This document shows positions 22,247 to 40,928 of a stretch of DNA of 64,000 nucleotides, one piece after another. Under the pieces are notes generated by a model. That model was given only the letters and a program-made list of their open reading frames with translations. It was not told the origin of the DNA and did not search any database. The stretch is from a virus. The stretch's first letter is position 1, and each line of letters starts with the position of its first letter. The position numbers and the translations under genes were made by a program. The stretch covers positions 34,635 to 98,634 of the IMG/VR virus record IMGVR_UViG_3300006990_004842, one strand, 5' to 3'.

Positions 22247-22594
22247 TTAATTCGCCTTTATATCACTTAGTGCTTTGTCGCCTGCCATTTTACCAACATC
22301 AACTGTAGGTTCTGCATCAGTGTCAACATCGCCACTTAATTCATCTGCAGGCACAATTTTTTCTGAATCTGCACTACTTGCAAATCCTGAATCTCTTACT
22401 TTTTTAACAAGTGTGTCTATGTCAATTAAATGTCCTTGTTTTGCTAACAAGTCCTGAAATAATTCTGTAGGTATAGACTTTGCATCCATTCTAGTCATCA
22501 CTTCAGACGATAGCAAGTCACCGATAGCATCATCCATTTCGCTATCTGCTGTTTTTTGTGCATACTCCAGCAATGTGACTTCGCGAATTAACAT
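22247..22594 (-). CDS. Acidic hypothetical protein with internal-protein-like leader
   Basis: MLIREVTLLE leader. Confidence 0.55.
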   Translation of the reverse strand: MLIREVTLLEYAQKTADSEMDDAIGDLLSSEVMTRMDAKSIPTELFQDLLAKQGHLIDIDTLVKKVRDSGFASSADSEKIVPADELSGDVDTDAEPTVDVGKMAGDKALSDIKAN

Positions 22595-23916
22595 TAAATT
22601 TCAGCTCTGCCCAATGGCTCCTCTTCAGGACCAGCACTTGCAGGAATATTATCTTCTAAGTCACCCTCAGGTTCGCCTAGTCCCATATCGCCAGTATCTA
22701 AATCGTCGCCGCCTAAATCACCAGTGTCAGCCATTGCTCCACCTGCTACAAAACCTTCTCCTGAAAGTTCTGCAACTGCTTGATCAAAGCCTGTTTTAAT
22801 TGCTTTTGTTGCTTCTAAGTGCTGAGACAACAATCCGTTAATGTTATCTGAAAAACTAACTGCTTTGTCTCCGCCCATTTCGCCACGTACTTGATCAGCA
22901 ATAGCAGGCAAGTCTTCGTTCATCATACGACCTAATCTTTCTACTTGATCTTGAATATCATCTGCTAATGCACGTACAGCCATAACAACTTCTGCTTCTT
23001 CAACGTTTACTTCTTCAGAAATCATTTCACTTAAGATATCATCAAACATGCTATTAAATTCTTCTTTAACGTTTGATTTTTTTGATTCTGTTTTATTCAT
23101 TGCATCTGTAACTTCTTCAGGTTTCATACCTAATTCTTTAGCAATGTCTTCGATACTTTTTCCGTCTTTCTTTAGTTTATGCATGTATTGAATACTGTCA
23201 TTTAATTTTCTTTCTGCAATTTTGCGACCAAACATTTGAATACCACTTACAACTGCATCTTCTTCGAGACCATTAAGGAAACCAACCACTGAGTCTCTGC
23301 TTTTACCTGATACTTCTGCAAATTTACCTAACGTTTCTTCGATAGCATCGTAACTGCTAGTGTCAACAATTTCAACACCAATCTCTTTAGCAAGTTCTGA
23401 TAATAGACGTTCATTAAGATCGCTGTCTATACTTTCTGCACTTGCCATAACAGCACCGCTACCACATTCATCCATGTAGTCTTTTGCCGCTTTGATAACA
23501 ATAGTCTTTGCTGTGTCATCGTCGTAAGCAAAACGATTGTCCATTCTGTAACGGTTCATGCATTCTGTACATGCTTCATCCATTGTATAACCGCTGTCCA
23601 TAAGTTGTCTTACACTGTCAGAAATCATGCCTTTCATTTCCATATATGCAGGTGATTCTGCATACATGCCTTCTGCTAACATGACGTCTATTGCATCTCT
23701 AATACCTAAAAATTTTGCATATTCAGGTTCTAGTTGAAACTTTTTATTGCTGTTGCGAAGTTTGACTACGGCCAAATTAGCAGTTTCTTTTAACTCAAGC
23801 AACTTTCTCTTTGGCAAAAATGCCTTCTTAAAAGAAACACCAAACTCTTCGCCCAACACTTTTGATATTTTGCCTAGTTTGGAACTAGGTGTTGGATTTA
23901 ATTGATTTAATAACAT
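22594..23916 (-). CDS. Putative prohead core/internal helical protein
   Basis: Acidic and helical with many (L/I/V)xE sites. Late box at 23949. Confidence 0.5.
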   Translation of the reverse strand: MLLNQLNPTPSSKLGKISKVLGEEFGVSFKKAFLPKRKLLELKETANLAVVKLRNSNKKFQLEPEYAKFLGIRDAIDVMLAEGMYAESPAYMEMKGMISDSVRQLMDSGYTMDEACTECMNRYRMDNRFAYDDDTAKTIVIKAAKDYMDECGSGAVMASAESIDSDLNERLLSELAKEIGVEIVDTSSYDAIEETLGKFAEVSGKSRDSVVGFLNGLEEDAVVSGIQMFGRKIAERKLNDSIQYMHKLKKDGKSIEDIAKELGMKPEEVTDAMNKTESKKSNVKEEFNSMFDDILSEMISEEVNVEEAEVVMAVRALADDIQDQVERLGRMMNEDLPAIADQVRGEMGGDKAVSFSDNINGLLSQHLEATKAIKTGFDQAVAELSGEGFVAGGAMADTGDLGGDDLDTGDMGLGEPEGDLEDNIPASAGPEEEPLGRAEI

Positions 23917-23948
23917 AGTGGTTTCCTATTCATAACTGTAATAGTACT

Positions 23949-23956
23949 TATTTATC
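23949..23956 (-). promoter_or_regulatory. Late promoter
   Basis: GATAAATA. Confidence 0.6.
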
Positions 23957-23981
23957 ATTTTATTGAGAATTGTGAAAGGAC

Positions 23982-24434
23982 TTAGAATAGGTTTTGTACA
24001 TTGCTTAAGGCATATTTCTGCCTTAATACAGTTTCTATGAGTCTGTGACGTGTGGCTTCAAACTTAAAAGCGTCTTTTGTGGTCTTCATAGTGTGTCTAT
24101 AAAACATGCATTCGTTTTTTGCATCAACATATTTGTTTATAAGCTCTTGTGGCTTTCTAAACATACCACCGTCTCTAATAGTCTGTTGGTGCAATTTCTT
24201 GCTGTTTAGACGCACACAGAGCACGTTAGCAAGTTTTTTAGTGGGAATGTAGGTCAATACTACCCTTTTGGTTATAGCCTCTAAAATTTGATACATTTCT
24301 ATGGACTTGTCATAGGAAATCACAAAGACACCACGTTTAGCAACATTTTGTGCTATCTTGTCTAACTTTTTACCTATAACTCTTTTATTCAATTTTACTT
24401 TTTTGTGGGTAGACCTTGAAACCAACGATATCAT
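23982..24434 (-). CDS. Basic hypothetical protein
   Basis: Probable start MISLVS. Confidence 0.6.
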   Translation of the reverse strand: MISLVSRSTHKKVKLNKRVIGKKLDKIAQNVAKRGVFVISYDKSIEMYQILEAITKRVVLTYIPTKKLANVLCVRLNSKKLHQQTIRDGGMFRKPQELINKYVDAKNECMFYRHTMKTTKDAFKFEATRHRLIETVLRQKYALSNVQNLF

Positions 24435-24609
24435 TTTTTCTGACCTTTTGTAGTATGTTTCTACAATACATGTCTTCTGCCATGTATCTTGTTCTCTCGT
24501 CAAATTTATTTATTGGACAAAACTTTTCAAAATCTATTTTATTGAACAGGCGAGTCTCATCTCTGGTGATGAAACTTAAATTACCATTTTTGCATTTAAC
24601 TGCTTTCAT
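24385..24609 (-). CDS. Hypothetical protein
   Basis: 74-aa ORF within the operon. Confidence 0.6.
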   Translation of the reverse strand: MKAVKCKNGNLSFITRDETRLFNKIDFEKFCPINKFDERTRYMAEDMYCRNILQKVRKNDIVGFKVYPQKSKIE

Positions 24610-24611
24610 GT

Positions 24612-25166
24612 TTAACCGCCGGCATGCATTGCGGCCATATGTGCTTTATATTTTTTAGTGCCTTTCTTATGTGGGCTTTTACCTTCGTCTAAACCTAATT
24701 CTGCTATAGCATCTTCTATTGCTTTTCCTGTGTCTCTGCCACGATAAAACTCTGGCATGTTATCAGACATAAATGATTCTATTTCATCTTTGCTTTCGAA
24801 GTTATCTAAACCTTTTTCATTAACTAATGCAACTAATATACTTACAGCCTGTTCTCTTTTGGGATTGCTTTCAGACACTTTCTTTTTCTTAGAAAACACA
24901 GAAGGATTTTGGCGTCTGTGCAGTTTGCCCATTGGCATGGCAAAACTTCCTATTGCTCCGGCTACTGTTTCTTTTAATGATTCTACGATTTCAAAATCAT
25001 CATCTGATGTACCACTATAACGTGATGCTCCTACAGCACCTGATTTGATCCTGGCCTTTTGTTTGGCACTATTGTCGCTCATAGCCGTAACATGATATAC
25101 TTTACCAGTTTTTTTATGCTTTACTTTGTAGTGCTTAAATGATTCTGTTAGGTCTGAAATCTTCAT
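24612..25166 (-). CDS. Modular basic protein with internal-protein-like leader
   Basis: MKISDLTE leader. Segments bounded by IVE/LKE/VSE/LDE. Ends ...KAHMAAMHAGG. GATAAATA at 25172-25179. Confidence 0.6.
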   Translation of the reverse strand: MKISDLTESFKHYKVKHKKTGKVYHVTAMSDNSAKQKARIKSGAVGASRYSGTSDDDFEIVESLKETVAGAIGSFAMPMGKLHRRQNPSVFSKKKKVSESNPKREQAVSILVALVNEKGLDNFESKDEIESFMSDNMPEFYRGRDTGKAIEDAIAELGLDEGKSPHKKGTKKYKAHMAAMHAGG

Positions 25167-25177
25167 AATAGTATTTA

Positions 25178-26344
25178 TCAATCATAAGATACGTTGGGAA
25201 TAGAATAACCTAAACTGTTTAAGCCGTTAATAACTTGGTTTGCATAGTATGTAGCATTTGCTCCAGCAATCACATCAGTTTCAACACGTACTTCTACGTT
25301 TGCTCTATCACTAAGTCCTGCTGTACCACTGTAATTACCAGTACCATTTATAACAGCATTAACATAATCTTTATATCCGCCATAACTACCAGGCCCTGTG
25401 TTTACTTGGAACAACACACTTCTAAAATATGAACTGCTATTTGCTGTTTCTGCAGTTGCTATTGTACTTCTCAGTGAAGTAATATCAGTGGTATGTTGAG
25501 TAGTTGGGTTAGTTGGATACGTACTAGTTGCACCATACGGTGAGTTTTCATCTGAGAATACCAAATTAATGACCTGCGTAACATTTGAATTTGAACCCAT
25601 TGTTTCCATTTGGCTCCATACTCTTTCATTGCCTTCTTCTGTGAATGAAACATTATTATCATAAGCATCACCGTCGTCATCATAAAAAGGTAATAATGCA
25701 TTTTTAAGTACATCATTTTTCATAGTACGTAAAGGTGTTAACGAACTATTCATACTACCACTGCTGTCAAAGAATATATTGATTTCTGTTTGCGTATCAA
25801 TTTGATTTTGCGGTGCGGCAAACAATGTGCCACCTGAATATAAAATCATTACTCTTGCTGTACCCGAAGTTGCACCACCTTGTGTTACTGTGCTTCTCAA
25901 TGTTGTTCTATTACTGTAAAGATAGTTTGTTTCATCAACTGTAGAAACTGTGGGATCAAAATGTGTAAACAATCTATCAGGATCTGCACTATCACCAATA
26001 GTAATATTTGTATTAGCATCAGCACCAGCCCAATTTGTTAATGCTTCTATACTAACACTTAAAACTGTTGTGTTAGCAGGAACAACTATCATATTAGTAG
26101 TACTGCTATCATAAGAAATAACGTTGCTAAATGTTCTATTAATGTTTATACTTTCCAATTGAGAAAGTGTTTGTGCCTGGTCTGCATTTTCACCGGGTGC
26201 TACTTTTGCTCTGTTGAGATCGTTGTTTCTATCAAACAGAGAAATGTCATCATCACTGGAAACAATAGTTGCTTGATATTCTCTACCAAGTTCAATATTT
26301 CCACTTACACCAGTTATGCCATAATTTTTAACTGAATCTACCAT
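25178..26344 (-). CDS. Putative structural protein with vWA-like domain
   Basis: MIDAS-like FFDSSGSM followed later by FSDE. Confidence 0.55.
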   Translation of the reverse strand: MVDSVKNYGITGVSGNIELGREYQATIVSSDDDISLFDRNNDLNRAKVAPGENADQAQTLSQLESININRTFSNVISYDSSTTNMIVVPANTTVLSVSIEALTNWAGADANTNITIGDSADPDRLFTHFDPTVSTVDETNYLYSNRTTLRSTVTQGGATSGTARVMILYSGGTLFAAPQNQIDTQTEINIFFDSSGSMNSSLTPLRTMKNDVLKNALLPFYDDDGDAYDNNVSFTEEGNERVWSQMETMGSNSNVTQVINLVFSDENSPYGATSTYPTNPTTQHTTDITSLRSTIATAETANSSSYFRSVLFQVNTGPGSYGGYKDYVNAVINGTGNYSGTAGLSDRANVEVRVETDVIAGANATYYANQVINGLNSLGYSIPNVSYD

Positions 26345-26922
26345 TATTTTTTCTTCCCACCTTTCATGTTAGCACACCAGTGATACATTTTACCACGTTC
26401 ACCACTGTACTTTTTTGCTTTTGCTCTTAAACTTGTTACAGAACCTTTACAACTGGCTCCTGCTTTTTTAACTCTGCCCGGTCTGCTTTTGCCTTTTTTC
26501 TTACCGTCAGCAAAGTTTTCGTCTAATTTACTTGCGTCTATATACCAAACTTTTGCTTTGCCTTTTGTACTAATAAGTCCTATAAGTCGTGTGTTGCCTG
26601 CTATAAGTTCTAATTTACCGTTTGGCATTTTCATCACAATAGGCATTTCTATTGTACCTGACTTCATTGCTTTTTTCAATCTTTGAACTTTTTCAGGTTC
26701 TAAATCTGCAAGTGTCTCTGATCCATCTGCGCCAGTGTTGCCTATCTTCTTTACAATATTACTATTTACATTAGCAACTTTACCAGTCTGTGCTAATTCT
26801 ATCCATCCATCTTTACCTAACTTGTCTAAGAACGGATAGCGATTTGCTTCTTCCCATTCTAGATCAAACTGTGGCTCAGCAAAGTTTTCATCTAGTATAC
26901 TTATAATTTCACTTATCAGCAT
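26344..26922 (-). CDS. ParB/Srx-like domain plus C-terminal basic two-Cys peptide
   Basis: MPIV...LIAGNTRL. LDENFA occurs twice, flanking the domain. Confidence 0.6.
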   Translation of the reverse strand: MLISEIISILDENFAEPQFDLEWEEANRYPFLDKLGKDGWIELAQTGKVANVNSNIVKKIGNTGADGSETLADLEPEKVQRLKKAMKSGTIEMPIVMKMPNGKLELIAGNTRLIGLISTKGKAKVWYIDASKLDENFADGKKKGKSRPGRVKKAGASCKGSVTSLRAKAKKYSGERGKMYHWCANMKGGKKK

Positions 26923-27640
26923 CGTCGATGTCCTTTTTCAAATCATCTAAGTCTGCTTCTATATCATATAGTCTAAACTTATTTACTTTGTCTTCTTGTC
27001 CTGGTTTTAACTCAGGATGAAATTTCATTTCAACTATTCTAGCATCTTTCTTTATAGACTTACCATCCACTAATACTTCAACTTCAAATGGTACATGTTT
27101 TTCATACCAATATGCCATCTCATATCCGCCATCGTCTAATAATTTTACTAATAGTCCTCTGTCGTAATCTTTTTCTTCTGCTTTGAGTACTTTCATTTCA
27201 CCACGTGGTAAATTCAAAGCAATGTTCCTATCACCTGATGTAGGTTTATCTTCTTTTACTTTTTCATTTTTGACACAGTTAGGCACACGTTTTCCAAACA
27301 TGGTTTTCATGCCCTTCTTCTTGTAGCCTTTCCAACATTTTTCAACTATTGTTTCTACAATGCTTGGGTCTATTTCTTGTGCTGTAAATTGTTGCATCAA
27401 TTCAACAATGTCATCATCGTGATCTAAAATTTTATAATCAGCATCAACTATGAGTGCTACATTGTCTTCGTAACCATGATTCTCACCACTAAGTACATGC
27501 ATTCCATTACTTAATTCTATATGGTCTTCTTGGTTGACCCATTGATGAATAACTGATTCTACTTCTTCATGTGGCAGTTTACCTAACTTAGGTGCTGTAT
27601 TAAGAGTAGTTAAATCTTCTATGATTTCGTTAATAAGCAT
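26909..27640 (-). CDS. Modular protein containing a KCWKGY...VPNCV cassette
   Basis: MLINEIIE leader. The basic cassette is bounded by IVE and KNE. Confidence 0.6.
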   Translation of the reverse strand: MLINEIIEDLTTLNTAPKLGKLPHEEVESVIHQWVNQEDHIELSNGMHVLSGENHGYEDNVALIVDADYKILDHDDDIVELMQQFTAQEIDPSIVETIVEKCWKGYKKKGMKTMFGKRVPNCVKNEKVKEDKPTSGDRNIALNLPRGEMKVLKAEEKDYDRGLLVKLLDDGGYEMAYWYEKHVPFEVEVLVDGKSIKKDARIVEMKFHPELKPGQEDKVNKFRLYDIEADLDDLKKDIDDADK

Positions 27641-27644
27641 GTTA

Positions 27645-28799
27645 CTACATCATGTCCTTGTACTTGTCTTTGAATATTTTCCAAGACTCTTGTTCATCAT
27701 ACATCCATTTAGGATCTTTGCGTTTTTCTTGAAACCAATGTGTAAAGTTTTCAATAGGACTCTGGTTTCGATTATATTTCCATTCATTATCTAATTCGCG
27801 TCTAGCAGGTACCATAACATCTAACATGCCATCTCCCGAGTCTTTTCTAGGATTCTTAAAGATGTCATGATTTCTCTGAAACGTTTGGCTTCTACCCCTT
27901 CTAGGATTATTAGATCTTTTGTAAGTTTTGATATCTTCAGCAGTGTGTGCAAAAGTTTCCATTATGGAATCTAACTTTGCTTCAACCTTGATTGCTTTTA
28001 CATACTTTTTATTTAATTCTAAGACAACATCTAATCTATGGTGACCGTTTATTAATACATTGTTTTCATCAATTATTAAAGGGTCGTAATTATTACTAGT
28101 AATTTTTTCAAATGCCTTTTTATGCATTTTTTTAGATCTGTCTTTTTGTACAGTGACTATACTTTCAGTTTTTATAAAACCTTTTTTATATGATATGTTT
28201 GCATCTAGTAAATCTTGTTCATTAATTTGAGGCATGTCTTTTCTTTCATACACGCCTTTGCCAAAGTCAAATCCACTGCTTGATTTCTTTTTCTTCTTTT
28301 TCTTTTTAGAATTTTTACTAGGACGTAATCCATAAGCAAAAAAGTGTCCTACGCCACGTGGTTCTGCAGTAGGGGTGGAGTCAGGGGAATTCGAATCGCC
28401 AGTATCGGCAACTCCGGAATCTGCAGACCCGCTGTCTCCACTTGAACCTGTTGAACCGCCATCACCACCAGCACTTGCACCAGCACCAGCACCAGCACCA
28501 GCACCAGCACCAGCACCAGCACCCGCACCACCGCCTCCGGCTTCAGCATCTATACGTGATTGCGAACGTACTTGTTGCTTATTTTCTTGTTCCCAACGTT
28601 GAATAAGTGCTCTTGCATCACGTGCCATAACATGGAATCTTGCTTGAAGCTCACGTTGTATTTGTACTTTACCCATGCCTCGTTGTACAAGTTTTGATAT
28701 TACATCGGTGTACACCGAATAATCATGCATTCCGTACTTGTCGTAAGTGAGGTCTGGAAACCTCATATCGCCTTCTCTAAAAAATTCGTTTAATTTCAT
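27645..28799 (-). CDS. Modular protein with Gly-Ala repeat and ParB/Srx-like domain
   Basis: MKLNEFFRE leader, (GA)n tract, PLIID...INGHHRL. Confidence 0.6.
   Translation of the reverse strand: MKLNEFFREGDMRFPDLTYDKYGMHDYSVYTDVISKLVQRGMGKVQIQRELQARFHVMARDARALIQRWEQENKQQVRSQSRIDAEAGGGGAGAGAGAGAGAGAGAGASAGGDGGSTGSSGDSGSADSGVADTGDSNSPDSTPTAEPRGVGHFFAYGLRPSKNSKKKKKKKKSSSGFDFGKGVYERKDMPQINEQDLLDANISYKKGFIKTESIVTVQKDRSKKMHKKAFEKITSNNYDPLIIDENNVLINGHHRLDVVLELNKKYVKAIKVEAKLDSIMETFAHTAEDIKTYKRSNNPRRGRSQTFQRNHDIFKNPRKDSGDGMLDVMVPARRELDNEWKYNRNQSPIENFTHWFQEKRKDPKWMYDEQESWKIFKDKYKDMM
28477..28530. repeat. (GCACCA)x9 coding microsatellite encoding a Gly-Ala tract
   Basis: Read directly; one unit is GCACCC. 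Confidence 0.9.
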
Positions 28800-29341
28800 T
28801 CTGATAACCTTATAACCCCACAGCCAACTCTGTCACCAGCGTTTCCTGTTTTCAAACTTTCCTCGTCACCACCTTTGCCTAAATCATCTACATCAGCATG
28901 TACAACTATTGCTCTGCCTACAACACTTCGATCGCCATGTAAATCAACACGTGGTAATACTAAATCTATTTTTGCAACACCACTATCATCTGCAACAATA
29001 TTGCCTAAGTCGCCTACATGGCCTTCTTTGATATTGCCATGATCGACTCCGTCTGGATTGTAGTGTGGTCCTGCACTTGCACAACCGTCACTTAAATCAC
29101 CAAACTCATGTATGTGAAATCCATGCTCACCAGGTTCAAGTCCACTTACTTCACCCACTAACATTGTAGGCTGACCTGGATTTTGCTTAAACAAAAAATG
29201 TCCTACAACATCACCCTCTGTGTGTTCTAGTTCGCATTTTGCTTTGATTGTTTGTTCTGCTTCTTGTAAACCTTTGATACCTGCACAATCACAACCTTTT
29301 GCTTTTGTTCTAGGGCAACTTTTTACTTGTGAAAATTTCAT
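28796..29341 (-). CDS. sodC: Cu/Zn superoxide dismutase
   Basis: HGFHIH, GC.SAGPHYNP, HVGDLGN, VVH, GNAG.R..CG. No signal peptide. Confidence 0.93.
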   Translation of the reverse strand: MKFSQVKSCPRTKAKGCDCAGIKGLQEAEQTIKAKCELEHTEGDVVGHFLFKQNPGQPTMLVGEVSGLEPGEHGFHIHEFGDLSDGCASAGPHYNPDGVDHGNIKEGHVGDLGNIVADDSGVAKIDLVLPRVDLHGDRSVVGRAIVVHADVDDLGKGGDEESLKTGNAGDRVGCGVIRLSE

Positions 29342-32300: not shown

Positions 32301-35300
32301 TGCCTACATATTTTGCACCATGCTTTTTCTTGAATTCTTTTTCTTTGTCATCTAATTTACGTTTTTGATCAAGTGCTTTTTGTTGGCTATCAAAACCTAA
32401 CTTTTGTGAAATCTTGTCAAATTCTTCTAAGAACTCTTGTATAACATCTAATCTGCCTTGAACAAGTGCTTGTACAGGACGAACCTTATCGTAATAGTCC
32501 TTACCGTGCCTTATTTTATTAGTGTAATATCTTTCAAATGAACTTGAAATATAATTTTGAATATTGTCTCTTAATCTATGTGCAACAGGTTCGCCAAAAG
32601 GATCTGGTCGATTTATAGCATCTAATGCATCAGTTAAGTTATTTGCTACTCCTCTACGCATACCCAAAAATTCTGGACCGTCATAATCATCTTTGAATTC
32701 TGTATCTTCAATACCTTCTCCTGCCATTATTTCTGCCAGTTTATCATCTGTATCGGCTTTGTTCATGTCAATAAGATATTCCACCAAGTCACCAATTTCT
32801 TTCATAGTGTCGTGGTATACTGAAGGATTTTCTTCTTTGATATCTTCCAGGTGTTCCCAACGCATTCTCAACTTTTGCATGATTTTACTCAATGCATTTT
32901 CTCTATAACTATCATCGCCGGTTAAATTAGGATTATGTTTTCTTGATACTGGGTGGTTCCATTCTGGATACTGCTTGAGGTGATCCATGAATTTATTAAA
33001 TGCTTTTTTATTATATGGTGTTCCTGGTTCAAATAAAGGACCATAACTATAAGAACCACTTACCAGGTGTCTATGAAACTCTTTGTATTCCCTACCAATA
33101 GTACCCATATCATCTAGCATAATAGCCAATCTATCTTGCTTAGAGTCAGTGTTAGTGCCAGGCATTGCATCAGCACCCATCTTAATAAACTGTTTTGACT
33201 GCTCACTGTCTTTGATTTCTTCACTGTTTACAGCATGCCACATACCTTGTATTGCACGTTCTACATGTGATATGCTTATGTACTCAGGTTCTTTAAGAAC
33301 ATCCTTCTTGAATAATCGATCAACTCCGTTTTTGATTCTTTGAAAACGTTGACTGGGTTTAATTTTTGTATGTCTATCTGCACTAATTGTAATTTCGTCC
33401 TCAACATCTTTCATTATCTTATCAAATTGTTGATAGTTAAGTTCAAAGTCTTTTAATGTGTTTCTCAATATACCAATTGTCTTTGCATTTACAGGTTTAC
33501 GATTTAGATTTTGACTTAGATCATATCCTGCTTGAGCAACACTTAACACAAATCCTCTTTGTGCTTTGCTTAAATAATATGGTGCATTTCTGCTTGGTGC
33601 TGTTGCATCAGGTTTCATGTAACCTCTTATAGGTTCACCTTCTGTAACTTCTTCTATCTCAACTTTTTCACCAGTGGCTTTTTCATAATCTGCAATCTTT
33701 TGTTTCCACTTTTCATCTGCACCCGGTGCTGATGCTTCTTTGTATCTTTCAAGCATTTCAAATGCACCAGTAAGATAATGCATGTACTTGACAAAATTTT
33801 CTTTACCAAAGAAATTTTTCAATGCATCTATTGCAGGATGATCAACTTTACCCTTTACACTTTCCTCATCGTCTGCAGATATTTTACCAACATTATTAAT
33901 TAATCTAAACAGTGCTTTGACATAATCACCTTTATATGCTGTTTCGCTGTATGCCGCAGATAATGTTGTAGCATAACGTACAACTGCTTTCATGGTAGTT
34001 GGAAAATCATTATGATAGTCATGTCCGCCACCAATTCTAAATTCTATAAGTTGATTTTTTGTATCGCCGTCTAATTGGTCTTTGAAATTTATAGCAGTAA
34101 ATTTGTCACCCTGAATACCTGATGCTAAAATTTGTTCTATATTTTGAATTGTTTTGACATTATCAGGGTCTGCTTTTAACTTGTAGGCTAATTTTTCCAA
34201 ACTGGCCATTTGACTTTTTGCATAACTGTTACCCTTTCTGCCAAATGTACTGAGTAGATATTTGTCACCTAATAATATTGCTAACTTAACTTTATTAACA
34301 GTGATGCCGTTTGCATAGTCGTCATCATTCTTGCCTGCATAACTCATAGTGACATGCAAACCTGTTGAATTGTTTGTTTCTACATTATTTTGCTGTAGCA
34401 TATCAAACAAACTTTTCATTTCTGTAAGCATTGTACGTGGTGTTTCGTACACAGGAGAAATAATTTCTGCACCTGTGCCGTAACTGTCAATAGAGCTATC
34501 AGATTCTACACGCCAATATGTTTGATTAGCACCATAATAACTGTGATAATCTCCGTATCGTACTTCACTGCGTTCACTATTGTCATCAGCCCAAGTTTCT
34601 ACGTATTCAGAAACTTCTGCAAGGCCGCGGCCTTCCCCATCAGGATTACTCAAATAGTAACCATGTTCACTTAGTGTACTACTCCAACTACCATATTCGT
34701 CATTAGCCCAAGTATCTATGTCGTTTTCTTCACCTGCAATTTCATAGGCTCTGTCCATTGCTTCGCCTTCATCACGAATTGTTTCTTCAAGCCAATCTAG
34801 ATATTCTGCTTCGTATTCTTCTTCTACAAATTCTCTGACCCAGTTCATATAATTCCAACCATCTTCTTCGCGGTTTTGGAATTCTACAGGATCGTCTTCT
34901 TCAAATTCTGCTTTGTATTGTTCTACTGCTTCACTGCTGGGACCACTAGAACTATCTATAAAATCATTTAACTCATTTTCTTCTTCTTTGCGATCTGCTA
35001 CTAATTCGTCTATGACATCTTGCTCGTAATCCATGGCTTTTTCACCGAGCCATTCTTGATAACTTTCGTTTATCTCTTGTACAGCACGGCGGCCCTCTTG
35101 GTCATTAAGAAAATCTTCAATGTCATACCAATTATATTCATATAACCAATCGTCTTCATCGTTGGTATCTGATATGCCTTCCCAACTAGTTTCTGCTTCA
35201 AAGCCACACTTGATCGGCAAGTCTAATGCTTCTTTGGCAAGTTTTTTGTTGTTGAAATTAATTTCAAACAGTTGTTCTTTGCCTTGCTCTATGAGTTTAT

Positions 35301-35775
35301 TTTTACGTATTAATTTTTTGATTTTTCTGTGTAAACGATTTTTCTTGTCTGTTTTGTTTAACAGTTTGTTTATTTTGCTACTGCTTTCTTGTGCATAATC
35401 TGGATTATTGATATTCAATTCGTCGTCTGCATCTACAACAGAATATTTTTTATTCTTTGGATCTTGTACAACAACTGCGTCTGGATTTGGTCCATCGCCA
35501 ATTGAAGTTTTTACAACACCTAATTCATTGCCTTTATCATCATAGTATGAATCACCTTGTCCTAGTTCTCCTGCTTTTGCAGGCACAAATGGTTGTATAG
35601 GATCTTTAGGTTGAACGCCTGTGGTTACAGGACTAGATTTAGGTGGATTTGTATTTGGACTTTTTGCTTTAGGTTTTTGACTTGCTGTGCCACCTTTGTT
35701 ATAGGTAGGTGCTCCTGGCGTTGCACCATATTCTTTAAGAACGTGTTCTATTGTTTTAATATTCCTAAATTTCAT
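29341..35775 (-). CDS. Giant multidomain protein: amidoligase (COOH-NH2 ligase) domain, basic two-Cys cassette and C-terminal PD-(D/E)XK-like domain
   Basis: CGFEAE, GAEIISP, STGLHV, KFTAINF, IEFR (about 33960-35210). GPGE...GD......VELK near the C-terminus. Confidence 0.65.
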   Translation of the reverse strand: MKFRNIKTIEHVLKEYGATPGAPTYNKGGTASQKPKAKSPNTNPPKSSPVTTGVQPKDPIQPFVPAKAGELGQGDSYYDDKGNELGVVKTSIGDGPNPDAVVVQDPKNKKYSVVDADDELNINNPDYAQESSSKINKLLNKTDKKNRLHRKIKKLIRKNKLIEQGKEQLFEINFNNKKLAKEALDLPIKCGFEAETSWEGISDTNDEDDWLYEYNWYDIEDFLNDQEGRRAVQEINESYQEWLGEKAMDYEQDVIDELVADRKEEENELNDFIDSSSGPSSEAVEQYKAEFEEDDPVEFQNREEDGWNYMNWVREFVEEEYEAEYLDWLEETIRDEGEAMDRAYEIAGEENDIDTWANDEYGSWSSTLSEHGYYLSNPDGEGRGLAEVSEYVETWADDNSERSEVRYGDYHSYYGANQTYWRVESDSSIDSYGTGAEIISPVYETPRTMLTEMKSLFDMLQQNNVETNNSTGLHVTMSYAGKNDDDYANGITVNKVKLAILLGDKYLLSTFGRKGNSYAKSQMASLEKLAYKLKADPDNVKTIQNIEQILASGIQGDKFTAINFKDQLDGDTKNQLIEFRIGGGHDYHNDFPTTMKAVVRYATTLSAAYSETAYKGDYVKALFRLINNVGKISADDEESVKGKVDHPAIDALKNFFGKENFVKYMHYLTGAFEMLERYKEASAPGADEKWKQKIADYEKATGEKVEIEEVTEGEPIRGYMKPDATAPSRNAPYYLSKAQRGFVLSVAQAGYDLSQNLNRKPVNAKTIGILRNTLKDFELNYQQFDKIMKDVEDEITISADRHTKIKPSQRFQRIKNGVDRLFKKDVLKEPEYISISHVERAIQGMWHAVNSEEIKDSEQSKQFIKMGADAMPGTNTDSKQDRLAIMLDDMGTIGREYKEFHRHLVSGSYSYGPLFEPGTPYNKKAFNKFMDHLKQYPEWNHPVSRKHNPNLTGDDSYRENALSKIMQKLRMRWEHLEDIKEENPSVYHDTMKEIGDLVEYLIDMNKADTDDKLAEIMAGEGIEDTEFKDDYDGPEFLGMRRGVANNLTDALDAINRPDPFGEPVAHRLRDNIQNYISSSFERYYTNKIRHGKDYYDKVRPVQALVQGRLDVIQEFLEEFDKISQKLGFDSQQKALDQKRKLDDKEKEFKKKHGAKYVGTINTYDFGGNVFISNSFASDLKRGTNIDDRTIYRYTEPGRNSYRSERGDVLVIPNAHYFTALDAYEVSKSDNYKGTWRESVAKNILDKFRDLYSVHFQQIDDYFVDINKEDLKQKLKDARVNIDKNLGDGRTGMGPDPLLPSDDMQGPFGEPFSPSSAVSWKVNNPKLASKAKAKEQEYLNSIERQIPIHADVLDYEGSSSNTIEQYANYIQLANYLKIDAGVEKQGINLLKRVTDSYNSNDMPGAEGFGMERFVSAVKLAKQYIEQNYMVSGGNYFRKDAEGKPGDDIGGLYTNRSSANVGELDSIELTDTSYQEARGNYEIFDEMMQNGMQNYMVQADVNRLVKFLVGGFSENYKLSVLRAMKKNATGAGRREPVDIQQALELGRNAMTWESVFTKFDKLPLIEKLQLLDKVDANKINEAWSKKYKNSINCSNPKGFSQKAHCAGKKKNEGDVSNSLDRRRAQKGKDKYHKAVDVPVSRKIAPGQNFDKFVVIPSENGKVGHMVGVLNGKAEDLGASAIELANALVDAYNRGGFTDLPLQKIDLGESVPNNDKIHKLTKLLKEPILASDLKAQMEVYFVLPVPSMIRDFKTARAQNGDNADLRHIVKGYMDMLHKDDQKRLKKSLKENRYITVNEYDDLGSEKENIIKTISGLDASNEAHAQLLDRIYKLLNSEHIDSTMGVAFQKGVADELMPEKEKAKVIQDMTRIIGGIDSDYGTMNKFLKRLETTGTIVNLKELAQPINTFQSVFGDDTAINAFIALADYGVGKKQKGPGEYALACLSNQIRLAEGEGDLEIEGIGKVELKAALSSSGGRIGYGGGSQKAKRAVLDKYAESIPTVMQSIGGVGGSLGLPAFVKALNIDLPPTDVNNQKVRKAIATELLVMDLENFAGPVIDTIATSQDLTAIEDSYLAQNLRWYQDRDHFDALLLMHIPNRKTGMIRTPEDLIAFRRSGHANSTSISIIPTQAGAGREQWAQLTLNKGTV

Positions 35776-36050
35776 CGATTTAACATTCTCAATCTACGAC
35801 TTGCTGAACTAAACTTTTTAGTCCTTTGGGATTTTCTAGCCATCCTGCCGCCAAACTTTGCTTTGTTTCTTTTCAACGTCAAACGTTTTTTCATATTGAT
35901 AGGAGCACTACACTGACTTGCTGTTGCTACTACGCGGCCTTTGCGTCTGCCACTAGTACATCTTACAGCACGTTTAATTTTATTACCAACTTTACGCCAT
36001 ACCATTCTGGCTTCTAATAGATTTTCTTCTGTTAGTTGTTCGTACTTCAT
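35772..36050 (-). CDS. Very basic small protein with internal-protein-like leader
   Basis: MKYEQLTEENLLE followed by a K/R-rich segment with two Cys. Confidence 0.7.
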   Translation of the reverse strand: MKYEQLTEENLLEARMVWRKVGNKIKRAVRCTSGRRKGRVVATASQCSAPINMKKRLTLKRNKAKFGGRMARKSQRTKKFSSASRRLRMLNR

Positions 36051-36298
36051 CCCATCATTCTCATTATTAATCCACCTACTGTTGCAAGTAAAGTGGTAAC
36101 TGTAATGCCTACAATAGCAACAATCCAACTTTCTAATTTATTGAACCTTGCCTTACTATCCTCTTTGAATTCTCTTAATTCAGTTGTGATATTTTCTATA
36201 CGCAACATATCAGCAATGATGTGTGCTTCTAAATTACCATTCTCGATATATTTTGGCTCTTGTTCAACTTTAATCTTTGGTTCTGCTTTGCGTGGCAT
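36047..36298 (-). CDS. Small membrane protein (coiled coil plus C-terminal TM; XhlA/holin-like topology)
   Basis: Hydrophobic tail WIVAIVGITVTTLLATVGGLIM. Confidence 0.55.
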   Translation of the reverse strand: MPRKAEPKIKVEQEPKYIENGNLEAHIIADMLRIENITTELREFKEDSKARFNKLESWIVAIVGITVTTLLATVGGLIMRMMG

Positions 36299-36306: not shown

Positions 36307-36711
36307 CTATAATAATTCTTGTTTAGTGAATTCCATATTAACTGAACTCGTTGTGTCTACTGTGCCATCATTTAGAACTATACCATCAAGTTCATTTTTT
36401 AATGTATCAATTGTGTGTACGTCTTCCCTTTCAAAAGCAAACTTAAAAATCCAGCCTGCTCCTGTTAAAGAAGGTGCTCCAAAATTTTCTAATACATTTG
36501 CACCAACACCATTTAATTCTACTGGATTATTCATCACAACTGGTTGAGCTCTTAATCCAATTACTTGAACAACACTTTCAAAATCCTTTTGTGTGTCGTC
36601 CGCATAATTACCTGTGCGTGTGATGTCTAATTTTGTAAACAATGAATAAAACTGAATGTTACCTGATACCACTTCAGAACTTCCCATTGCTCCGCTTCTT
36701 TGTCCAACCAT
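36307..36711 (-). CDS. Putative virion protein
   Basis: Has its own late box (36732-36739) and an AGGAG SD. Confidence 0.6.
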   Translation of the reverse strand: MVGQRSGAMGSSEVVSGNIQFYSLFTKLDITRTGNYADDTQKDFESVVQVIGLRAQPVVMNNPVELNGVGANVLENFGAPSLTGAGWIFKFAFEREDVHTIDTLKNELDGIVLNDGTVDTTSSVNMEFTKQELL

Positions 36712-36771
36712 ATGTGTCTCCTGTATTACACTATTTATCAGATCTGAATCAAGAAAAGACAGCCAAAAGAA

Positions 36772-36790: not shown

Positions 36791-36845
36791 CTCAAATTTG
36801 TGCATAACGCACGATCCCTAAGGTATTAGGATTTGTTTAGTAATC

Positions 36846-37088
36846 TTAACTAAATGTTGCGATTACTGTAGTACCTGTGATTGAAGGTGTTGCGCCTGCG
36901 CCTTGTACAGCGATATGACTACCACTTACTAAACCTTCTACTGCTACAACTACGAAGCCTTCGTTTTGTGCTTCAGCACATGCCGCTTCAACTGTTACTG
37001 CTGTTACGTCATCTACTTCTAAGATGTGAGTTGTACCTACGAAACCGTTTGCCGCTCTAACTGCCGCGTTTGGATTTGCTTGTGCCAT
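36846..37088 (-). CDS. Small Ala/Val-rich putative virion (decoration) protein
   Basis: Late box at 37142-37149 and strong AGGAGA SD. Confidence 0.65.
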   Translation of the reverse strand: MAQANPNAAVRAANGFVGTTHILEVDDVTAVTVEAACAEAQNEGFVVVAVEGLVSGSHIAVQGAGATPSITGTTVIATFS

Positions 37089-37162
37089 TTTTATTCTCCT
37101 GAAAATGTTTTAATTGAGTAAAAATATTACTCTGTTACACTTATTTATCTTTTTAGTCAAAA

Positions 37163-37188
37163 AAATACCCGCTATATAGCGGGTATTT
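37163..37188 (-). terminator. Intrinsic terminator
   Basis: AAATACCCGCTA/TAGCGGGTATTT palindrome plus T-run on minus. Confidence 0.8.
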
Positions 37189-37204
37189 AATTAATTTTTT
37201 TAAC

Positions 37205-37465
37205 TTAAAATGAGATATCTGCAATAACGTGACCTGCAATGTCGCCGTTTGCTAAATTGTCTGCGCCTTCAAGTATCATGTTTACTACAGCACCGTTTAC
37301 TGCGCCTACTTTTAATACTGAAAGATTTAAGTTTTGAACTGAGCTAACCAATGCTGTGTATTGAGTTGCTGAAATGTTTCCTGATTGCTGAGTAAAACTC
37401 TTAAGAAATACATCCTTACCAATAAACTCGCCAGCCTCTGCCGCTCTTCTATCTACTTGTGCCAT
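37205..37465 (-). CDS. Small putative virion protein (possible paralog of 36846-37088)
   Basis: Near-identical translation start region AGGAGAATAAAA(A)ATGGCACA. Late box at 37511-37518. Confidence 0.65.
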   Translation of the reverse strand: MAQVDRRAAEAGEFIGKDVFLKSFTQQSGNISATQYTALVSSVQNLNLSVLKVGAVNGAVVNMILEGADNLANGDIAGHVIADISF

Positions 37466-37527
37466 TTTTATTCTCCTAAATAAATGCAAGTGCTTTGCAC
37501 TCTATACATATATTTATCAAAAATTAA

Positions 37528-38115
37528 CTATTTTTTAGGAGGAGGAGTAAGATTTTTCTTTGCCTTTCTATAGGCATCAATACCTAGGGCGGCTAACTTG
37601 GAAGGAGTTCTACGAATTACGCCTTTGCTTTTATCATCTGCATCTTGTTTAACTGCATCGGCACCTTTACTAATTAAATCAGTAACTGTTTTAACAGGGC
37701 TACCAAATGCCTTATCCACACCATAAGATCTGTAAGGGCCTTGTGGGTTAGCTCTGTCCAACTGATTTAATGATGCTGACTTATTGGATGAGAATTTTTT
37801 ATCCTGTCGTGTACGTATAGTACTGGGTTTATCTTTTTGAGCAGTTGAGCCCGAACCCGAACCCGTTCTAAGATGGCCGTGTGTTTGATCTGACCAACCG
37901 CCTGCTCCCTTGTTTCTTAATTTTTTATCTTCTAATTCTCTGTACCTATCACGTGCTAATTCAGCGGCAACGTCCCATGGTACATTAGCCTTTTGTAATT
38001 CGGCTTGGATAAGATTTGCAAGAACAGTAGATTTTTTATCACCAGCGGCTCGCATTCTATTAAGAATTGGCAAATGCTCGGGCCTTATTGCTTCTGTGAT
38101 CTCGTAAATCTTCAT
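37528..38115 (-). CDS. Basic protein with internal-protein-like leader
   Basis: MKIYEITE leader. Confidence 0.6.
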   Translation of the reverse strand: MKIYEITEAIRPEHLPILNRMRAAGDKKSTVLANLIQAELQKANVPWDVAAELARDRYRELEDKKLRNKGAGGWSDQTHGHLRTGSGSGSTAQKDKPSTIRTRQDKKFSSNKSASLNQLDRANPQGPYRSYGVDKAFGSPVKTVTDLISKGADAVKQDADDKSKGVIRRTPSKLAALGIDAYRKAKKNLTPPPKK

Positions 38116-38828
38116 ACTGTTTTCCTAGACCAAAACTTTTCTATTTTAGAAATACTTGGCTTACTACTGTATTTATCAACAACTGGTTTGGGCTTAGGTG
38201 CCTGCGTCGGCTTTGCTTTAGCAACTGGTCTGTTGATTGCGTCTAGTGATATTAATAATTCACTACCTCTGCCAGTACCACCTCCCATAACACGTAATTC
38301 ATTTTGAAAACGTCTAACCAATGCTCTTCGATTTTGATCATTAAGTCTAGGCCAATCTAATACAGAACGTCTCCAAGTTTTATATCTGCCGTCTGTGATA
38401 CCGAGTTGAGATTCTAACCTAAACAAGTATGTGGTAAGTTCACTGCCATCTACATAGTCTCTTTGTATTCTACGCAAAAAATTGATATGCTTATCTTTAC
38501 TGAATTGCAATCTATCTAAAAACTTTTTGCTGTTTATAGGATCTTTAATGTTGAAGTTATCGTTATCTGGATGGCATATTTGATATGCTAACAAATACAT
38601 ATCAGTGGCATGTGTTCTAAACAGTGAATAAGTGCTGTATTGTGCTGTAGCACTTGCATACTGCTTTGCTGTTTTGTTAAAATCTTTATCTAAGTACAGC
38701 ATAGCCATAATTAAATTGTTCAAGTACATGAGATTAGCAATGTCTTTGCCAGTAAGAGTTGCAAATCGTCTAGTACTTCTAAACAATCTTGATTCTGATA
38801 ATTCTTGATCAATTAATTGGAAGTCCAT
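38112..38828 (-). CDS. Hypothetical protein with leader MDFQLIDQELSE
   Basis: Translationally coupled ORF in the late operon. Confidence 0.6.
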   Translation of the reverse strand: MDFQLIDQELSESRLFRSTRRFATLTGKDIANLMYLNNLIMAMLYLDKDFNKTAKQYASATAQYSTYSLFRTHATDMYLLAYQICHPDNDNFNIKDPINSKKFLDRLQFSKDKHINFLRRIQRDYVDGSELTTYLFRLESQLGITDGRYKTWRRSVLDWPRLNDQNRRALVRRFQNELRVMGGGTGRGSELLISLDAINRPVAKAKPTQAPKPKPVVDKYSSKPSISKIEKFWSRKTV

Positions 38829-40096
38829 TATGAGCCCGGCTTTCCTGTACCAAAGTTTATTCTGCTAAACTCTAATCTATCTACTAACTTCAAGCCGTTG
38901 CCCATTCTGTCAATTGCTACAAAACCTTCATCGTTTGTTACACGGAACTCATCACCGTCTTGTGCAAACTTTTGCATGCCACTTAGTGCATTTAATTTTT
39001 GCACTATAATAACTTTAGCATGTATAATCTTCAAATACAAATCATATACTGCAACAATTTCTTTAGCATGTTCTTTAATAAATTTAACGCCTGCAATCAT
39101 TTTTTCTGTTTTAGCGTCTTTGGTTTCTTGTCTTTTAACTTTGTCTATTTCTTTTGTCCAGTAACCAATATATTTTTGCACAAAGCCATTAGCAAAAATT
39201 TCAGGTTCGTCAAATGCTCCTGCACGTATTGCATTGTTTACATGTGCTTTTAATTGTGGCAAGAATTGCTCAACTTCATTTTTAGCAGATTCTAACCATG
39301 TAAAAGTGCTCTTGTCAATCTGTTTGAGATAATTGTTAGCATCTGTGATAGCACCTAACACTGTAGCACTTTCGTCGTCAGTCATACTCACTGTACCACT
39401 AACATCATCTATTGTGGCATCTGCTAACCATACATCATTAGAATTACCTAAACTTTTTGCATTAAAGCCAAAATTTGCCTGCATGTCATTGATAGTAGGG
39501 CCACCAGTGTATTCTGTATGCCATACAATACCCATGTCAGTTGATAAAATTTTATTTGCTAATTCACTGTCTTTGGGAATAGCATACATAATTGTGTTTG
39601 GTTTGAATGCAATAAGTTTTTCGCCTTCCCATTCAATTTCTTGGATGTCTTCTTTGCTGTACATAAAGTCACCTTGTACAACTCTGCCATTCCAATTAAG
39701 TTTACCAAGTTTTGCTAATGCTAATTTTAATTTTTTATTTAGGCCCTCACCAGGATGATTGTTATCAATGTCTCTGCCTGTGAAATTCAGTTTTGGTGTT
39801 TTAGCAAACACACCTTTTGTACCCACAAAGAATCTATTACTTTGAGGATCAATGCCAGCAATTACAGCAGGAGCACCATCCCACTTGAGAGTCATGTTAA
39901 ATTTTTGTTTGCTGTTACCTTCTAGCATTTGATGTAAACTGTATAGATAGTCTACTGCTTCTTTGGCACCTGCATAGCCTTTGTTGAAGATGTGATCTTC
40001 AAGATGTTCCATGTGAGTGTTTTGTTCTGCTTCTGCAAGAAAACTTTCACTGAGTATTTGTGTTATTAGTGGTTTTGAAACTTCAACAAATCTCAT
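38828..40096 (-). CDS. Ligase-superfamily (KxDG) nucleotidyltransferase-like protein
   Basis: HMEHLED, LKWDGAP (motif I), QGDFM (III), EGFV (IV), KLVDR (V). AAGGA SD before MRFVEV. Confidence 0.6.
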   Translation of the reverse strand: MRFVEVSKPLITQILSESFLAEAEQNTHMEHLEDHIFNKGYAGAKEAVDYLYSLHQMLEGNSKQKFNMTLKWDGAPAVIAGIDPQSNRFFVGTKGVFAKTPKLNFTGRDIDNNHPGEGLNKKLKLALAKLGKLNWNGRVVQGDFMYSKEDIQEIEWEGEKLIAFKPNTIMYAIPKDSELANKILSTDMGIVWHTEYTGGPTINDMQANFGFNAKSLGNSNDVWLADATIDDVSGTVSMTDDESATVLGAITDANNYLKQIDKSTFTWLESAKNEVEQFLPQLKAHVNNAIRAGAFDEPEIFANGFVQKYIGYWTKEIDKVKRQETKDAKTEKMIAGVKFIKEHAKEIVAVYDLYLKIIHAKVIIVQKLNALSGMQKFAQDGDEFRVTNDEGFVAIDRMGNGLKLVDRLEFSRINFGTGKPGS

Positions 40097-40106
40097 GTTG
40101 ATTTCC

Positions 40107-40928
40107 TTAAATGCCTGGCATTTCTTGTTGTTGAGGGTCGCTAGGATCGGCTTTTTTAAGAGACAAACCGAGGCCGCCTGCAAGAATACTTGCTACTGCT
40201 TGTTTCTGTTGCGGCGATAAGTCTTTTAGATCATTAATTAACTCAGGGTCAACACTTCCTTTCGCTTTGGCAATAGCATCTACAGAATTTTTAGAACCAT
40301 AATAATTACCATGGTAGTCAGTTGCCTTTTGTGCTATTTTCAAAAACACAGAACCTAAGTACTTGTTTAATAATCTTGGATTATCAAAAACCTTTATAGG
40401 GTCAATTTTTGGCACATCTGGATACATGCCTTTTGCAATTTTGTCAATGGTGCCTTCTCTAACACCGTTGTCTTTGAGATATTTTCTTATCTTGCTAAAA
40501 TAATATCCGCCGCCAACTTTAAGATCTTGTGTTTCAACATTGGGATTAAGAACTTCTTGATGAAACCATTGTGTTTTGAGGTTTGCTATTTGTTGATCAA
40601 GATTTGCTGATGCATCTTGTTTATCTGCGTCCGAACCATCTGCAGGAAGTCTAAAATTTTGTGATTTTTGTTTTGTTGCTAACTGAGCTACACTCTTCTT
40701 GAAAGTACTTGTACCTCCATTACCAAACTGTACAGGTTGCCTTGTTTTAACATCTTGTATTACATCATTTGCTGGGTTAGGTAATTTAATACCTTTTTGA
40801 TTAGCAACTTTAAGCCAATCATCTAACAAAGATTTGCCTAAATCTTTTCCAAGTTTTTTACCTTGTGCGGCCGCCCCGCCTTTGAATAAATCTGTAATAA
40901 AATTTTCTGAAACTTCGTTAACTTTCAT
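40107..40928 (-). CDS. Hypothetical protein with leader MKVNEVSE
   Basis: ORF in the late operon. Confidence 0.6.
   Translation of the reverse strand: MKVNEVSENFITDLFKGGAAAQGKKLGKDLGKSLLDDWLKVANQKGIKLPNPANDVIQDVKTRQPVQFGNGGTSTFKKSVAQLATKQKSQNFRLPADGSDADKQDASANLDQQIANLKTQWFHQEVLNPNVETQDLKVGGGYYFSKIRKYLKDNGVREGTIDKIAKGMYPDVPKIDPIKVFDNPRLLNKYLGSVFLKIAQKATDYHGNYYGSKNSVDAIAKAKGSVDPELINDLKDLSPQQKQAVASILAGGLGLSLKKADPSDPQQQEMPGI

Follow-up and report, generated by a model that had tools for sequence, protein, structure and literature searches.

Unrelated, probably late proteins of an uncultured marine jumbo phage share a probable T4-type capsid-targeting propeptide

Why do unrelated proteins, encoded side by side in a phage genome, begin with nearly the same few residues? 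The question is raised by a gene block of 19 kb (positions 22247-40928) in a 64,000-nucleotide (nt) stretch of viral DNA, the window of this study, which comprises bases 34635-98634 of a 98,634-bp IMG/VR contig (IMGVR_UViG_3300006990_004842). Coordinates are window positions unless marked "contig", and a second, related block is given in contig positions. CheckV rates the completeness of the contig at ~27%, which implies a full genome of roughly 350 kb. The large terminase is 58.6% identical to that of the Pseudomonas jumbo phage PA5oct and 55% to that of Agrobacterium phage Atu_ph07, and the genes for terminase, gp32, UvsX, primase, gp41-type helicase, exonuclease and ribonucleotide reductase follow one another collinearly with those of PA5oct at 128.8-165.4 kb. 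On these grounds of identity and gene order we therefore place the source phage, marine and uncultured, among the T4-related jumbo phages of the PA5oct / Rak2 group. The genes of the block are all on the minus strand and tightly packed, and a megablast search of the block against cultured phages gave no match. An initial annotation had proposed that the common N-termini are capsid-targeting propeptides as in T4, and that the block encodes a cargo carried in the phage head.

The leader has the form M-[K/R/L]-hydrophobic-x-[E/D/Q]-hydrophobic, and it is followed by a hydrophobic-x-Glu site. We ran a regular expression that covers the first six residues, ^M[KLRDI][ILVFY].[EDQN][ILVFA], on the 127 open reading frames (ORFs) of the whole contig. 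It matches 12 of the 20 genes in the block, and the gene at 38112-38828 carries a close variant, so that 13 of 20 genes have the leader; three of the leaders begin at an ATG internal to the longest ORF (25166, 36050 and 40096), which in each case directly adjoins the stop codon of the upstream gene. The eleven leaders quoted in the initial annotation were all found on the minus strand, and its claim that more than ten unrelated ORFs share a similar leader ending in Glu agrees with this count. The second block lies outside the window on the plus strand (contig 17695-24612); here the expression matches four of nine genes, of which one is a false positive, leaving 3/9. Elsewhere on the contig there is a single match among 98 genes, against 13/20 in the window block. 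From amino-acid composition 0.96 matches per 127 genes are expected by chance, and a control on internal Met residues gave 5/706. Fisher tests returned 1.8e-10 for the window block, which is an in-sample value, and p = 0.0016 for the second block without its false positive (3/9 vs 1/98), which is out-of-sample. The Glu site follows the same course: a hydrophobic-x-Glu ending at residues 8-17 is present in 13/16 leader proteins as opposed to 14/111 others. The leader is real, and its frequency is far beyond chance.

Two simple sources of a common N-terminus were considered and rejected. Paralogy does not apply, as the mature parts of the 16 leader proteins have no pairwise BLAST match at E<0.01, and a Sec or Tat signal was discarded on the grounds that the leaders are acidic or amphipathic and do not have a hydrophobic core. 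The false positive of the second block is a gene for AOX/PTOX (contig 19880-20452), dropped as a tagged protein because its enzyme domain, as defined by Pfam, begins at residue 2; a membrane receptor (53905-55521) is a second false positive of the expression. The isoelectric point (pI) is at least 9.3 in 10/16 leader proteins, and it exceeds 9 in 13% of the contig genes outside both blocks. The internal proteins of T4 are likewise basic.

We consider it likely that the shared N-terminus is a capsid-targeting propeptide of the T4 type, removed by a gp21-type protease. In T4, proteins of the head bear N-terminal propeptides of 10-19 residues that target them to the core, and gp21 cuts after Glu (PMC9026906, PMC5694885); residues 4 and 7 of the propeptide serve targeting, and residues 8 and 10 processing (PMC9026906, PMC5694885, PMC3012670). 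In the phage studied here, two hydrophobic positions three apart, flanked by Lys/Arg and by an acidic or amide residue, would dock a late protein onto the prohead scaffolding core, and the hydrophobic-x-Glu site, located 8-27 residues from the start, would be cut by a prohead protease of the gp21 family (Peptidase S77). T4 proteins in which Asp takes the place of the Glu are still targeted but are not cut. Cleavage would release the mature protein within the head, and the basic members, which are numerous, could there lie along the DNA. About 16 unrelated proteins would share this tag, including a Cu/Zn superoxide dismutase (SOD), a ligase-like nucleotidyltransferase, a ParB/Srx-like protein, a protamine-like protein of 92 amino acids (aa) and a multi-domain protein of 2144 aa. 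We infer docking to the core, cleavage at Glu and the number of copies; by analogy, the proteins would leave the head with the DNA and might act early, in the proposal of the initial annotation before phage transcription.

Individual leaders come close to known T4 propeptides. The leader of the 195-aa protein at 37528-38115, MKIYEITE followed by A, is the one in the block that is closest to the T4 IPII/IPIII leader (MKTYQEFIAE followed by A, read from NC_000866), and MKLNEFFRE followed by G, from the 384-aa protein at 27645-28799, resembles the propeptide of T4 gp24 (MAKINELLRE followed by S, NC_000866).

Relatives of the block show that the leader is a separate, conserved unit. Orthologues on the viral contigs L002-L006 (91-99% identity) and L007-L010 (~50%) keep their leaders, and leader and Glu are kept together in orthologues at 50-97% identity. 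In the DUF6267 family, represented by the 422-aa ligase-like protein at 38828-40096, the leader is found throughout 120 homologues (~60% identity); the predicted P1 residue, E17, is conserved at 90% or more, and length variation starts right after E17 and ends at an invariant core from N26. In an alignment-based model of this protein residues 1-30 have a pLDDT below 50 and lie apart from the folded body. The DUF6267 homologue of cyanophage S-PM2 is without a leader and starts five residues before the conserved HLEHLED motif, while those of pelagiphage HTVC008M and methylophage Melnitz have, in the same place, leaders of 8 and 13 residues with a hydrophobic-x-Glu end. Among the families of neighbouring ORFs at SOD-relative loci, mostly either the whole family has a leader or the whole family is without one. 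These comparisons show the leader to be an add-on to the mature proteins. In the Kyanoviridae Melnitz (L011 4932-9595) and HTVC008M (L012 4926-7209) a run of genes with short hydrophobic-x-Glu leaders is located downstream of the gp41 helicase gene; the run of Melnitz includes a 650-aa cytidyltransferase-like protein.

A candidate for the protease is found in relatives. The syntenic 83-kb relative G001 has three cargo genes at one end. Its head module, which follows the T4 order, runs from the portal gene through those for a 66-aa protein and an acidic protein of 263 aa to a Peptidase_S77 protease, the scaffold and the major capsid protein; the protease (8.3e-28, gene at 70153-70779) shares the motifs GELxHP and GVSSRG with T4 gp21. 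PA5oct also has a Peptidase_S77 protease (gp331, 7e-25). Among the 86 ORFs of G001 the regular expression finds only two cargo genes and the 66-aa protein adjoining the protease, a small core protein in the position of T4 gp67, whose PA5oct homologue, the virion protein gp333, has the leader too. In the major capsid proteins of both G001 and PA5oct a hydrophobic-x-Glu site lies ~24 residues ahead of the conserved IRR...GVQPM block; T4 gp23, which is cut after Glu65 (PMC5694885), has ~33 residues between its cleavage site and this block. A second 'head maturation protease' is annotated in PA5oct (gp212, NC_071039 180349-181020); it was detected by mass spectrometry (MS), and its N-terminus appears ClpP-like by eye.

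The virion evidence is by proxy. In PA5oct the interval between helicase (gp260) and exonuclease (gp244) holds gp259-gp245, and 11 of these 15 genes are noted as 'ESI-MS/MS' (electrospray ionization tandem mass spectrometry) in virions. By blastp, three of these MS virion proteins are direct homologues of proteins encoded here: gp247 of the 440-aa protein at 22594-23916 (2.7e-19), gp250 of the 134-aa protein at 36307-36711 (2.4e-24) and gp245 of a 104-aa protein at 21931-22245 (minus strand, just outside the block; 2e-19). In the whole PA5oct genome, 7/13 regex-positive proteins with a plausible start are virion proteins, compared with 93/461 (20%; binomial p = 0.007), and with a clear Glu site the proportion is 5/7 (p = 0.005). 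Tagged proteins of PA5oct include gp333, gp279, gp246, gp105 and gp104. Phage CBB has the same synteny and annotated virion proteins, one of which is homologous to the 74-aa protein at 24385-24609.

It is at this point that another explanation has to be weighed, namely that the leader is a virion-assembly or sorting tag which directs proteins to some other virion part or assembly site, stays uncleaved and does not mark head-internal proteins. The data from PA5oct and CBB would suit such a tag, since they say 'virion-associated' and not 'inside the head', and the block also has fibre-like and small acidic structural genes. However, a near-invariant Glu followed by an indel-rich linker is what a cleavage site predicts, the motif is also found on the small core protein adjoining the protease in G001 and PA5oct, and the leaders closely resemble T4 IP and gp24 propeptides that are cleaved. 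Moreover, the leaderless fibre-like genes have a conserved N-terminus of a different kind. We regard an uncleaved sorting tag as improbable and a cleaved propeptide as the better account of the leader.

The presumed late transcription of the block raises a further possibility. The box GATAAATA, which differs in one base from the late promoter of T4 (TATAAATA), was counted 21 times vs ~8 expected, mostly just upstream of starts; in and next to the block, boxes at 23956, 25179, 36739, 37149, 37518, 38177 and 41219 lie just ahead of gene starts. The initial annotation had described the leader genes as lying downstream of late boxes. The boxes are indeed enriched and precede several genes, but they stand directly ahead of only some of them, and the block genes without a box of their own would be co-transcribed. 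At window start 25166 and at contig starts 19880, 20461 and 22756 no more than 5-7 nt separate the end of the box from the ATG and a Shine-Dalgarno sequence is absent, therefore these late mRNAs are predicted to be leaderless or nearly so. The AOX/PTOX gene (plus strand; Pfam AOX 2e-68), which stands among tagged late genes, has a AATAAATA box 6 nt before its ATG.

One could thus suppose that the common N-terminus only reflects a constraint on translation initiation in late, partly leaderless mRNAs, i.e. favoured codons after the AUG. The short distance between several boxes and the ATG without a Shine-Dalgarno sequence would fit this, as would the fact that A+T-rich genomes often have Lys in second position and early codons rich in A/T. 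Yet at the conserved leader positions only the residue class is constant, the codons being variable in each of their three bases, which means that selection acts on the peptide. Most tagged genes are, besides, internal to operons. The late genes for the 80-, 86- and 134-aa proteins and the fibre-like proteins have their own boxes and do not have the motif. The conserved Glu is located up to 27 residues into the protein, and in homologues from other phages the segment is wholly absent. An initiation constraint is in our opinion very unlikely, and we return to the cargo that a propeptide would carry.

The identity of the cargo was predicted in the initial annotation as SOD, two ParB/Srx domains, an amidoligase/nuclease and a ligase-like enzyme. 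Of these labels that of the SOD is solid, that of the ligase-like enzyme is moderately supported, and those of ParB/Srx, amidoligase and nuclease are weak. The 181-aa Cu/Zn SOD (28796-29341) matches Pfam Sod_Cu (PF00080) at 4.2e-44 over profile positions 2-133 of 133, with the domain starting at residue 46. It is preceded by a non-hydrophobic N-terminal extension that consists of the core leader, a Cys motif and L-Q-E at residue 27, and no signal peptide is found. Relatives of this SOD occur on 229 viral contigs; in the 80 loci examined, all 26 distinct N-termini keep the six-residue core, the Cys motif and a hydrophobic-x-x-hydrophobic-S/T-Glu site. In L010, a relative at 50% identity, an Fe/Mn SOD follows the giant protein (18400-18933), with a 16-residue leader and the Pfam domain from residue 17, so that the same position holds non-homologous SODs, Cu/Zn here and Fe/Mn in L010, both behind a leader.

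The DUF6267 protein (Pfam DUF6267, 2.9e-100) has an invariant KWDG motif and a 17-residue leader ending L-S-E, and long contigs (220-344 kb) carry homologues of it and of the SOD. The alignment-based AlphaFold model reached a pLDDT of 67, the single-sequence model 37. Residues 60-233 of the model match the adenylyltransferase domains of tRNA, RNA and DNA ligases with Z scores of 5.0-6.2 over ~100 residues, while Foldseek against the PDB gave no significant match and phmmer and hmmsearch against PDB sequences gave none. The fold match is thus consistent with the ligase direction, which is moderately supported, and it lies below the level that would prove a fold.

For the ParB/Srx-like proteins the evidence consists of short motifs. 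The 384-aa basic protein, which has a Gly/Ala-rich linker besides its leader, contains an NGHHR motif and a weak match to the ParB-like phrog_620 (5.9e-6 over 36 residues). In the 192-aa basic protein (26344-26922; 12-residue leader ending L-D-E, basic Cys-containing tail) a possible ParB-like motif was seen by eye only; a match of this protein to the OAR family was rejected as spurious, and no other significant family was found. No Pfam ParB domain was detected in the 243-, 384- and 192-aa proteins even at E up to 0.1.

The 2144-aa multi-domain giant protein (29341-35775; 15-residue leader ending L-K-E) is for most of its length without a family. Residues ~409-600 match Amidoligase_2 (PF12224) at 2.5e-4, with 21.4 bits against a cut-off of 22 and 75 residues covered; residues 403-629 have tblastn matches in proteins of Atu_ph07 and RsoM2USA; and the C-terminus gives a weak restriction-endonuclease lead in an atlas search (0.78). 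A two-Cys cationic cassette at ~1581-1614, with x-x-Glu sites on either side, is missing in the L010 orthologue. The presence of an Amidoligase_2-like domain in the same block allows one to speculate that another enzyme, for instance this domain, recognizes or modifies the leader, much as shared tags can serve a single maturase. But the same type of leader is present in PA5oct, Melnitz and HTVC008M; blastp found no match to the giant protein in PA5oct (E<=1e-3), and tblastn of the protein against the phage collection returned no record from any of these three phages. The enzyme that co-occurs with the leader in relatives is the gp21-type protease, and the amidoligase match is below the Pfam cut-off. 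That the leader serves such an enzyme is hardly credible to us.

Several points speak against the propeptide interpretation and should be set beside the evidence in its favour. The regular expression gives false positives, i.e. the AOX/PTOX gene and the membrane receptor mentioned above. Some leaders are atypical: the 440-aa protein does not have an early Glu, and in the SOD the Cys motif stands between core and Glu. No protease, scaffold or capsid genes are present on the 98.6-kb contig, an absence that is uninformative because the contig is ~27% of the genome, and the link to gp21 rests on relatives at ~50% identity or less. The MS list of PA5oct also flags gp32-, UvsX- and kinase-like proteins and is for this reason not a clean virion list. 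Conversely, PA5oct gp256 (ligase-like, in the position of the DUF6267 protein) and the tagged gp103 and gp213 were not detected by MS in virions, and the PA5oct publication reports no leaders or N-terminal processing. The T4-like propeptide of the initial annotation is thus supported by the enrichment, the conserved Glu, the leaderless homologue, the protease of the relatives and the PA5oct MS data, but is left without head genes on the contig itself.

The view of the whole 19-kb block as cargo fits the 13 tagged genes and needs to be amended for the others, as the block also has a fibre-like gene, four small leaderless genes and a 74-aa homologue of virion proteins. At the helicase end the block is preceded by an 88-aa protein (40918-41184, minus strand, late box 41219) that is a homologue of PA5oct gp259 (blastp 2.3e-18); gp259 and CBB gp292, which occupy the same position, are both annotated 'virion structural protein'. 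Next to it are a 273-aa basic protein (40107-40928; pI 9.3, 8-residue leader ending V-S-E) without a Pfam or PHROG family, the DUF6267 protein, and a 238-aa basic protein (38112-38828; pI 9.9) with a 12-residue leader ending L-S-E that is identical in an orthologue at 50% identity. The 195-aa basic protein described above (pI 10.1) has a GATAAATA box at 38177. Then follow the four small leaderless genes, three of which have a late box of their own: those for an 86-aa acidic protein (37205-37465, box 37518), an 80-aa acidic protein (36846-37088, box 37149) and the acidic 134-aa homologue of gp250 (box 36739); the fourth encodes an 83-aa protein (36047-36298). The 92-aa protein at 35772-36050 is extremely basic (pI 12, 31% K+R), and its 13-residue leader ending L-L-E is conserved in 4/4 orthologues.

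Beyond the giant protein, the SOD and the 384-aa protein there is a 243-aa acidic protein (26909-27640), whose leader has 8 residues and ends I-I-E. This protein also contains a cationic cassette with two Cys, and its residues ~100-145 match phrog_727 and related families. The 192-aa protein is followed by a 388-aa acidic protein without the leader (25178-26344), and by a 184-aa basic protein (24612-25166) with an 8-residue leader ending L-T-E, whose late box ends 6 nt before the ATG. The 74-aa basic protein (24385-24609) does not have a canonical leader; it matches phrog_16215 (4.5e-11), and by tblastn it has homologues in two Rak2-like jumbo phages, CBB and BF, where the annotation is 'virion structural protein'. 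The acidic 440-aa protein (late box 23956) is regex-positive with the first Glu site only at residue 23, and it matches phrog_14154 'virion structural protein' (1e-10); tblastn against cultured phages gave no match for it, the gp247 homology having come from blastp against PA5oct ORFs. The last gene of the block encodes a 115-aa acidic protein (22247-22594; 10-residue leader ending L-L-E). The gene for the 104-aa homologue of gp245 adjoins the exonuclease gene and forms the end of the syntenic virion block.

Three acidic proteins, namely the 388-aa protein (25178-26344, minus strand) and two of the second block (contig 17695-18300 and 18315-18866, plus strand), share an N-terminus of ~20 residues that is unlike the cargo leader. 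The three proteins are probably a fibre or whisker attachment module, and since the 388-aa protein has it in common with its second-block paralogues it is probably a fibre-like virion protein and not head cargo. Small cationic cassettes with Cys (Pfam DUF7230, phrog_727, phrog_7595) are a repeated element of tagged proteins, either internal or terminal. In the window they are found at 26909-27640, 26344-26922, 29341-35775 (the cassette of the giant protein) and 35772-36050, and in the second block at L130:1873-2868, 3461-3799 and 5756-7612, in a numbering that puts the AOX/PTOX gene at 2880-3452. The window also has five tRNA genes, at 6213-7140 and 57303-57377 on the minus strand (Ser-GCT, Gly-GCC, Ala-TGC, Thr-TGT and Glu-TTC).

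The gene content of the block varies even between close relatives. L006 (91% identity) differs at 9152-10705 and 12027-13004: an additional module, ~285 residues long and with a leader of its own, stands upstream of the 238-aa protein in one fused reading frame, and at the junction the old leader survives as an internal ...L-C-E site followed by S. In addition, a 325-aa gene on the opposite strand is inserted in the block. The giant protein is 2144, 2131 and 1790 residues long in three relatives, with module-sized indels. Such gene turnover is typical of the internal-protein loci of T-even phages (PMC3012670).

It is useful to compare these features with known systems. The T4 proteins IPI, IPII, IPIII, Alt, gp24, gp67 and gp68 resemble the set described here in that a short propeptide stands on unrelated, often basic late proteins (PMC9026906, PMC3012670, PMC5694885). 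The propeptide has 8-27 residues in this phage as against 10-19 in T4; in both, a hydrophobic-x-Glu site comes after two hydrophobic positions spaced three apart, a gp21-family protease is present in both lineages, the cargo varies between close relatives, and an enzyme is found among the cargo, as is the case with Alt. There are differences too. The consensus is M-K-hydrophobic-x-E-hydrophobic-x-E as opposed to MKTYQEFIAE, the number of tagged proteins is ~16 as opposed to ~4-7, and a SOD, a ligase-like enzyme and a multi-domain protein of 2144 aa belong to the predicted cargo. The genes are located between the gp41 helicase and the exonuclease and not at the T4 ip loci. Jumbo phages such as phiKZ, 201phi2-1 and SPN3US likewise load many proteins into the head, and in phiKZ-like phages cleavage by a gp21-related protease takes place behind the Glu of a three-residue motif (PMC5694885). 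This motif is (S/A/G)-x-Glu and the propeptides are mostly long, whereas here P3 is hydrophobic as in T4 and the head module, known from relatives, is T4-like; the phiKZ-like phages also form another lineage, one that has a virion RNA polymerase and makes a phage nucleus.

The polyvalent proteins of phages and conjugative elements are very long, combine several conflict-type domains and are proposed to enter the cell with the DNA (Iyer et al. 2017, PMC5512222). The giant protein is likewise very long, but no Pfam domain typical of the class was detected in it, only the sub-threshold amidoligase match and the weak nuclease lead, and its delivery would make use of a T4-type leader. Nearest in position are PA5oct gp258-gp245 and CBB gp292-gp299, which lie between a DnaB-like helicase and the exonuclease as the present block does; among their proteins are several that begin with a leader of this type and that MS found in virions. 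Their blocks are smaller, ~9.5 kb in PA5oct and ~3.6 kb in CBB, and contain no SOD, no giant protein and no detected DUF6267 homologue.

A broader proposal can be put forward only tentatively, and we would hold it to be somewhat doubtful in its full extent. An abundant clade of marine jumbo phages may deliver a large pre-made proteome of at least 15 capsid-loaded proteins (~6,000 residues per set), including a SOD that matters enough for a non-homologous one (Cu/Zn or Fe/Mn) to take its place in other relatives, a ligase-like repair enzyme and a 2144-residue multi-enzyme that is maybe cut into modules by the protease, and the helicase-exonuclease locus may be a plug-in site for any gene that gains an 8-residue tag. 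The mechanism is textbook T4 biology, so the gain would be in scope and in the cargo, an unusually large and enzyme-rich set in phages abundant in marine viromes, and not in principle. If the tag works as in T4, one short peptide would select the proteins that abundant ocean jumbo phages carry into the cell before any gene is expressed, and a simple sequence rule could be used to read this 'injected proteome' from metagenomes. A tractable relative such as PA5oct would then offer a ready-made packaging tag, and the large differences in the helicase-exonuclease interval between close relatives would be explained. The functions of the first minute of infection would in that case include unexpected ones: the removal of superoxide, the repair or ligation of nucleic-acid ends, and a coating of DNA by protamine-like proteins.

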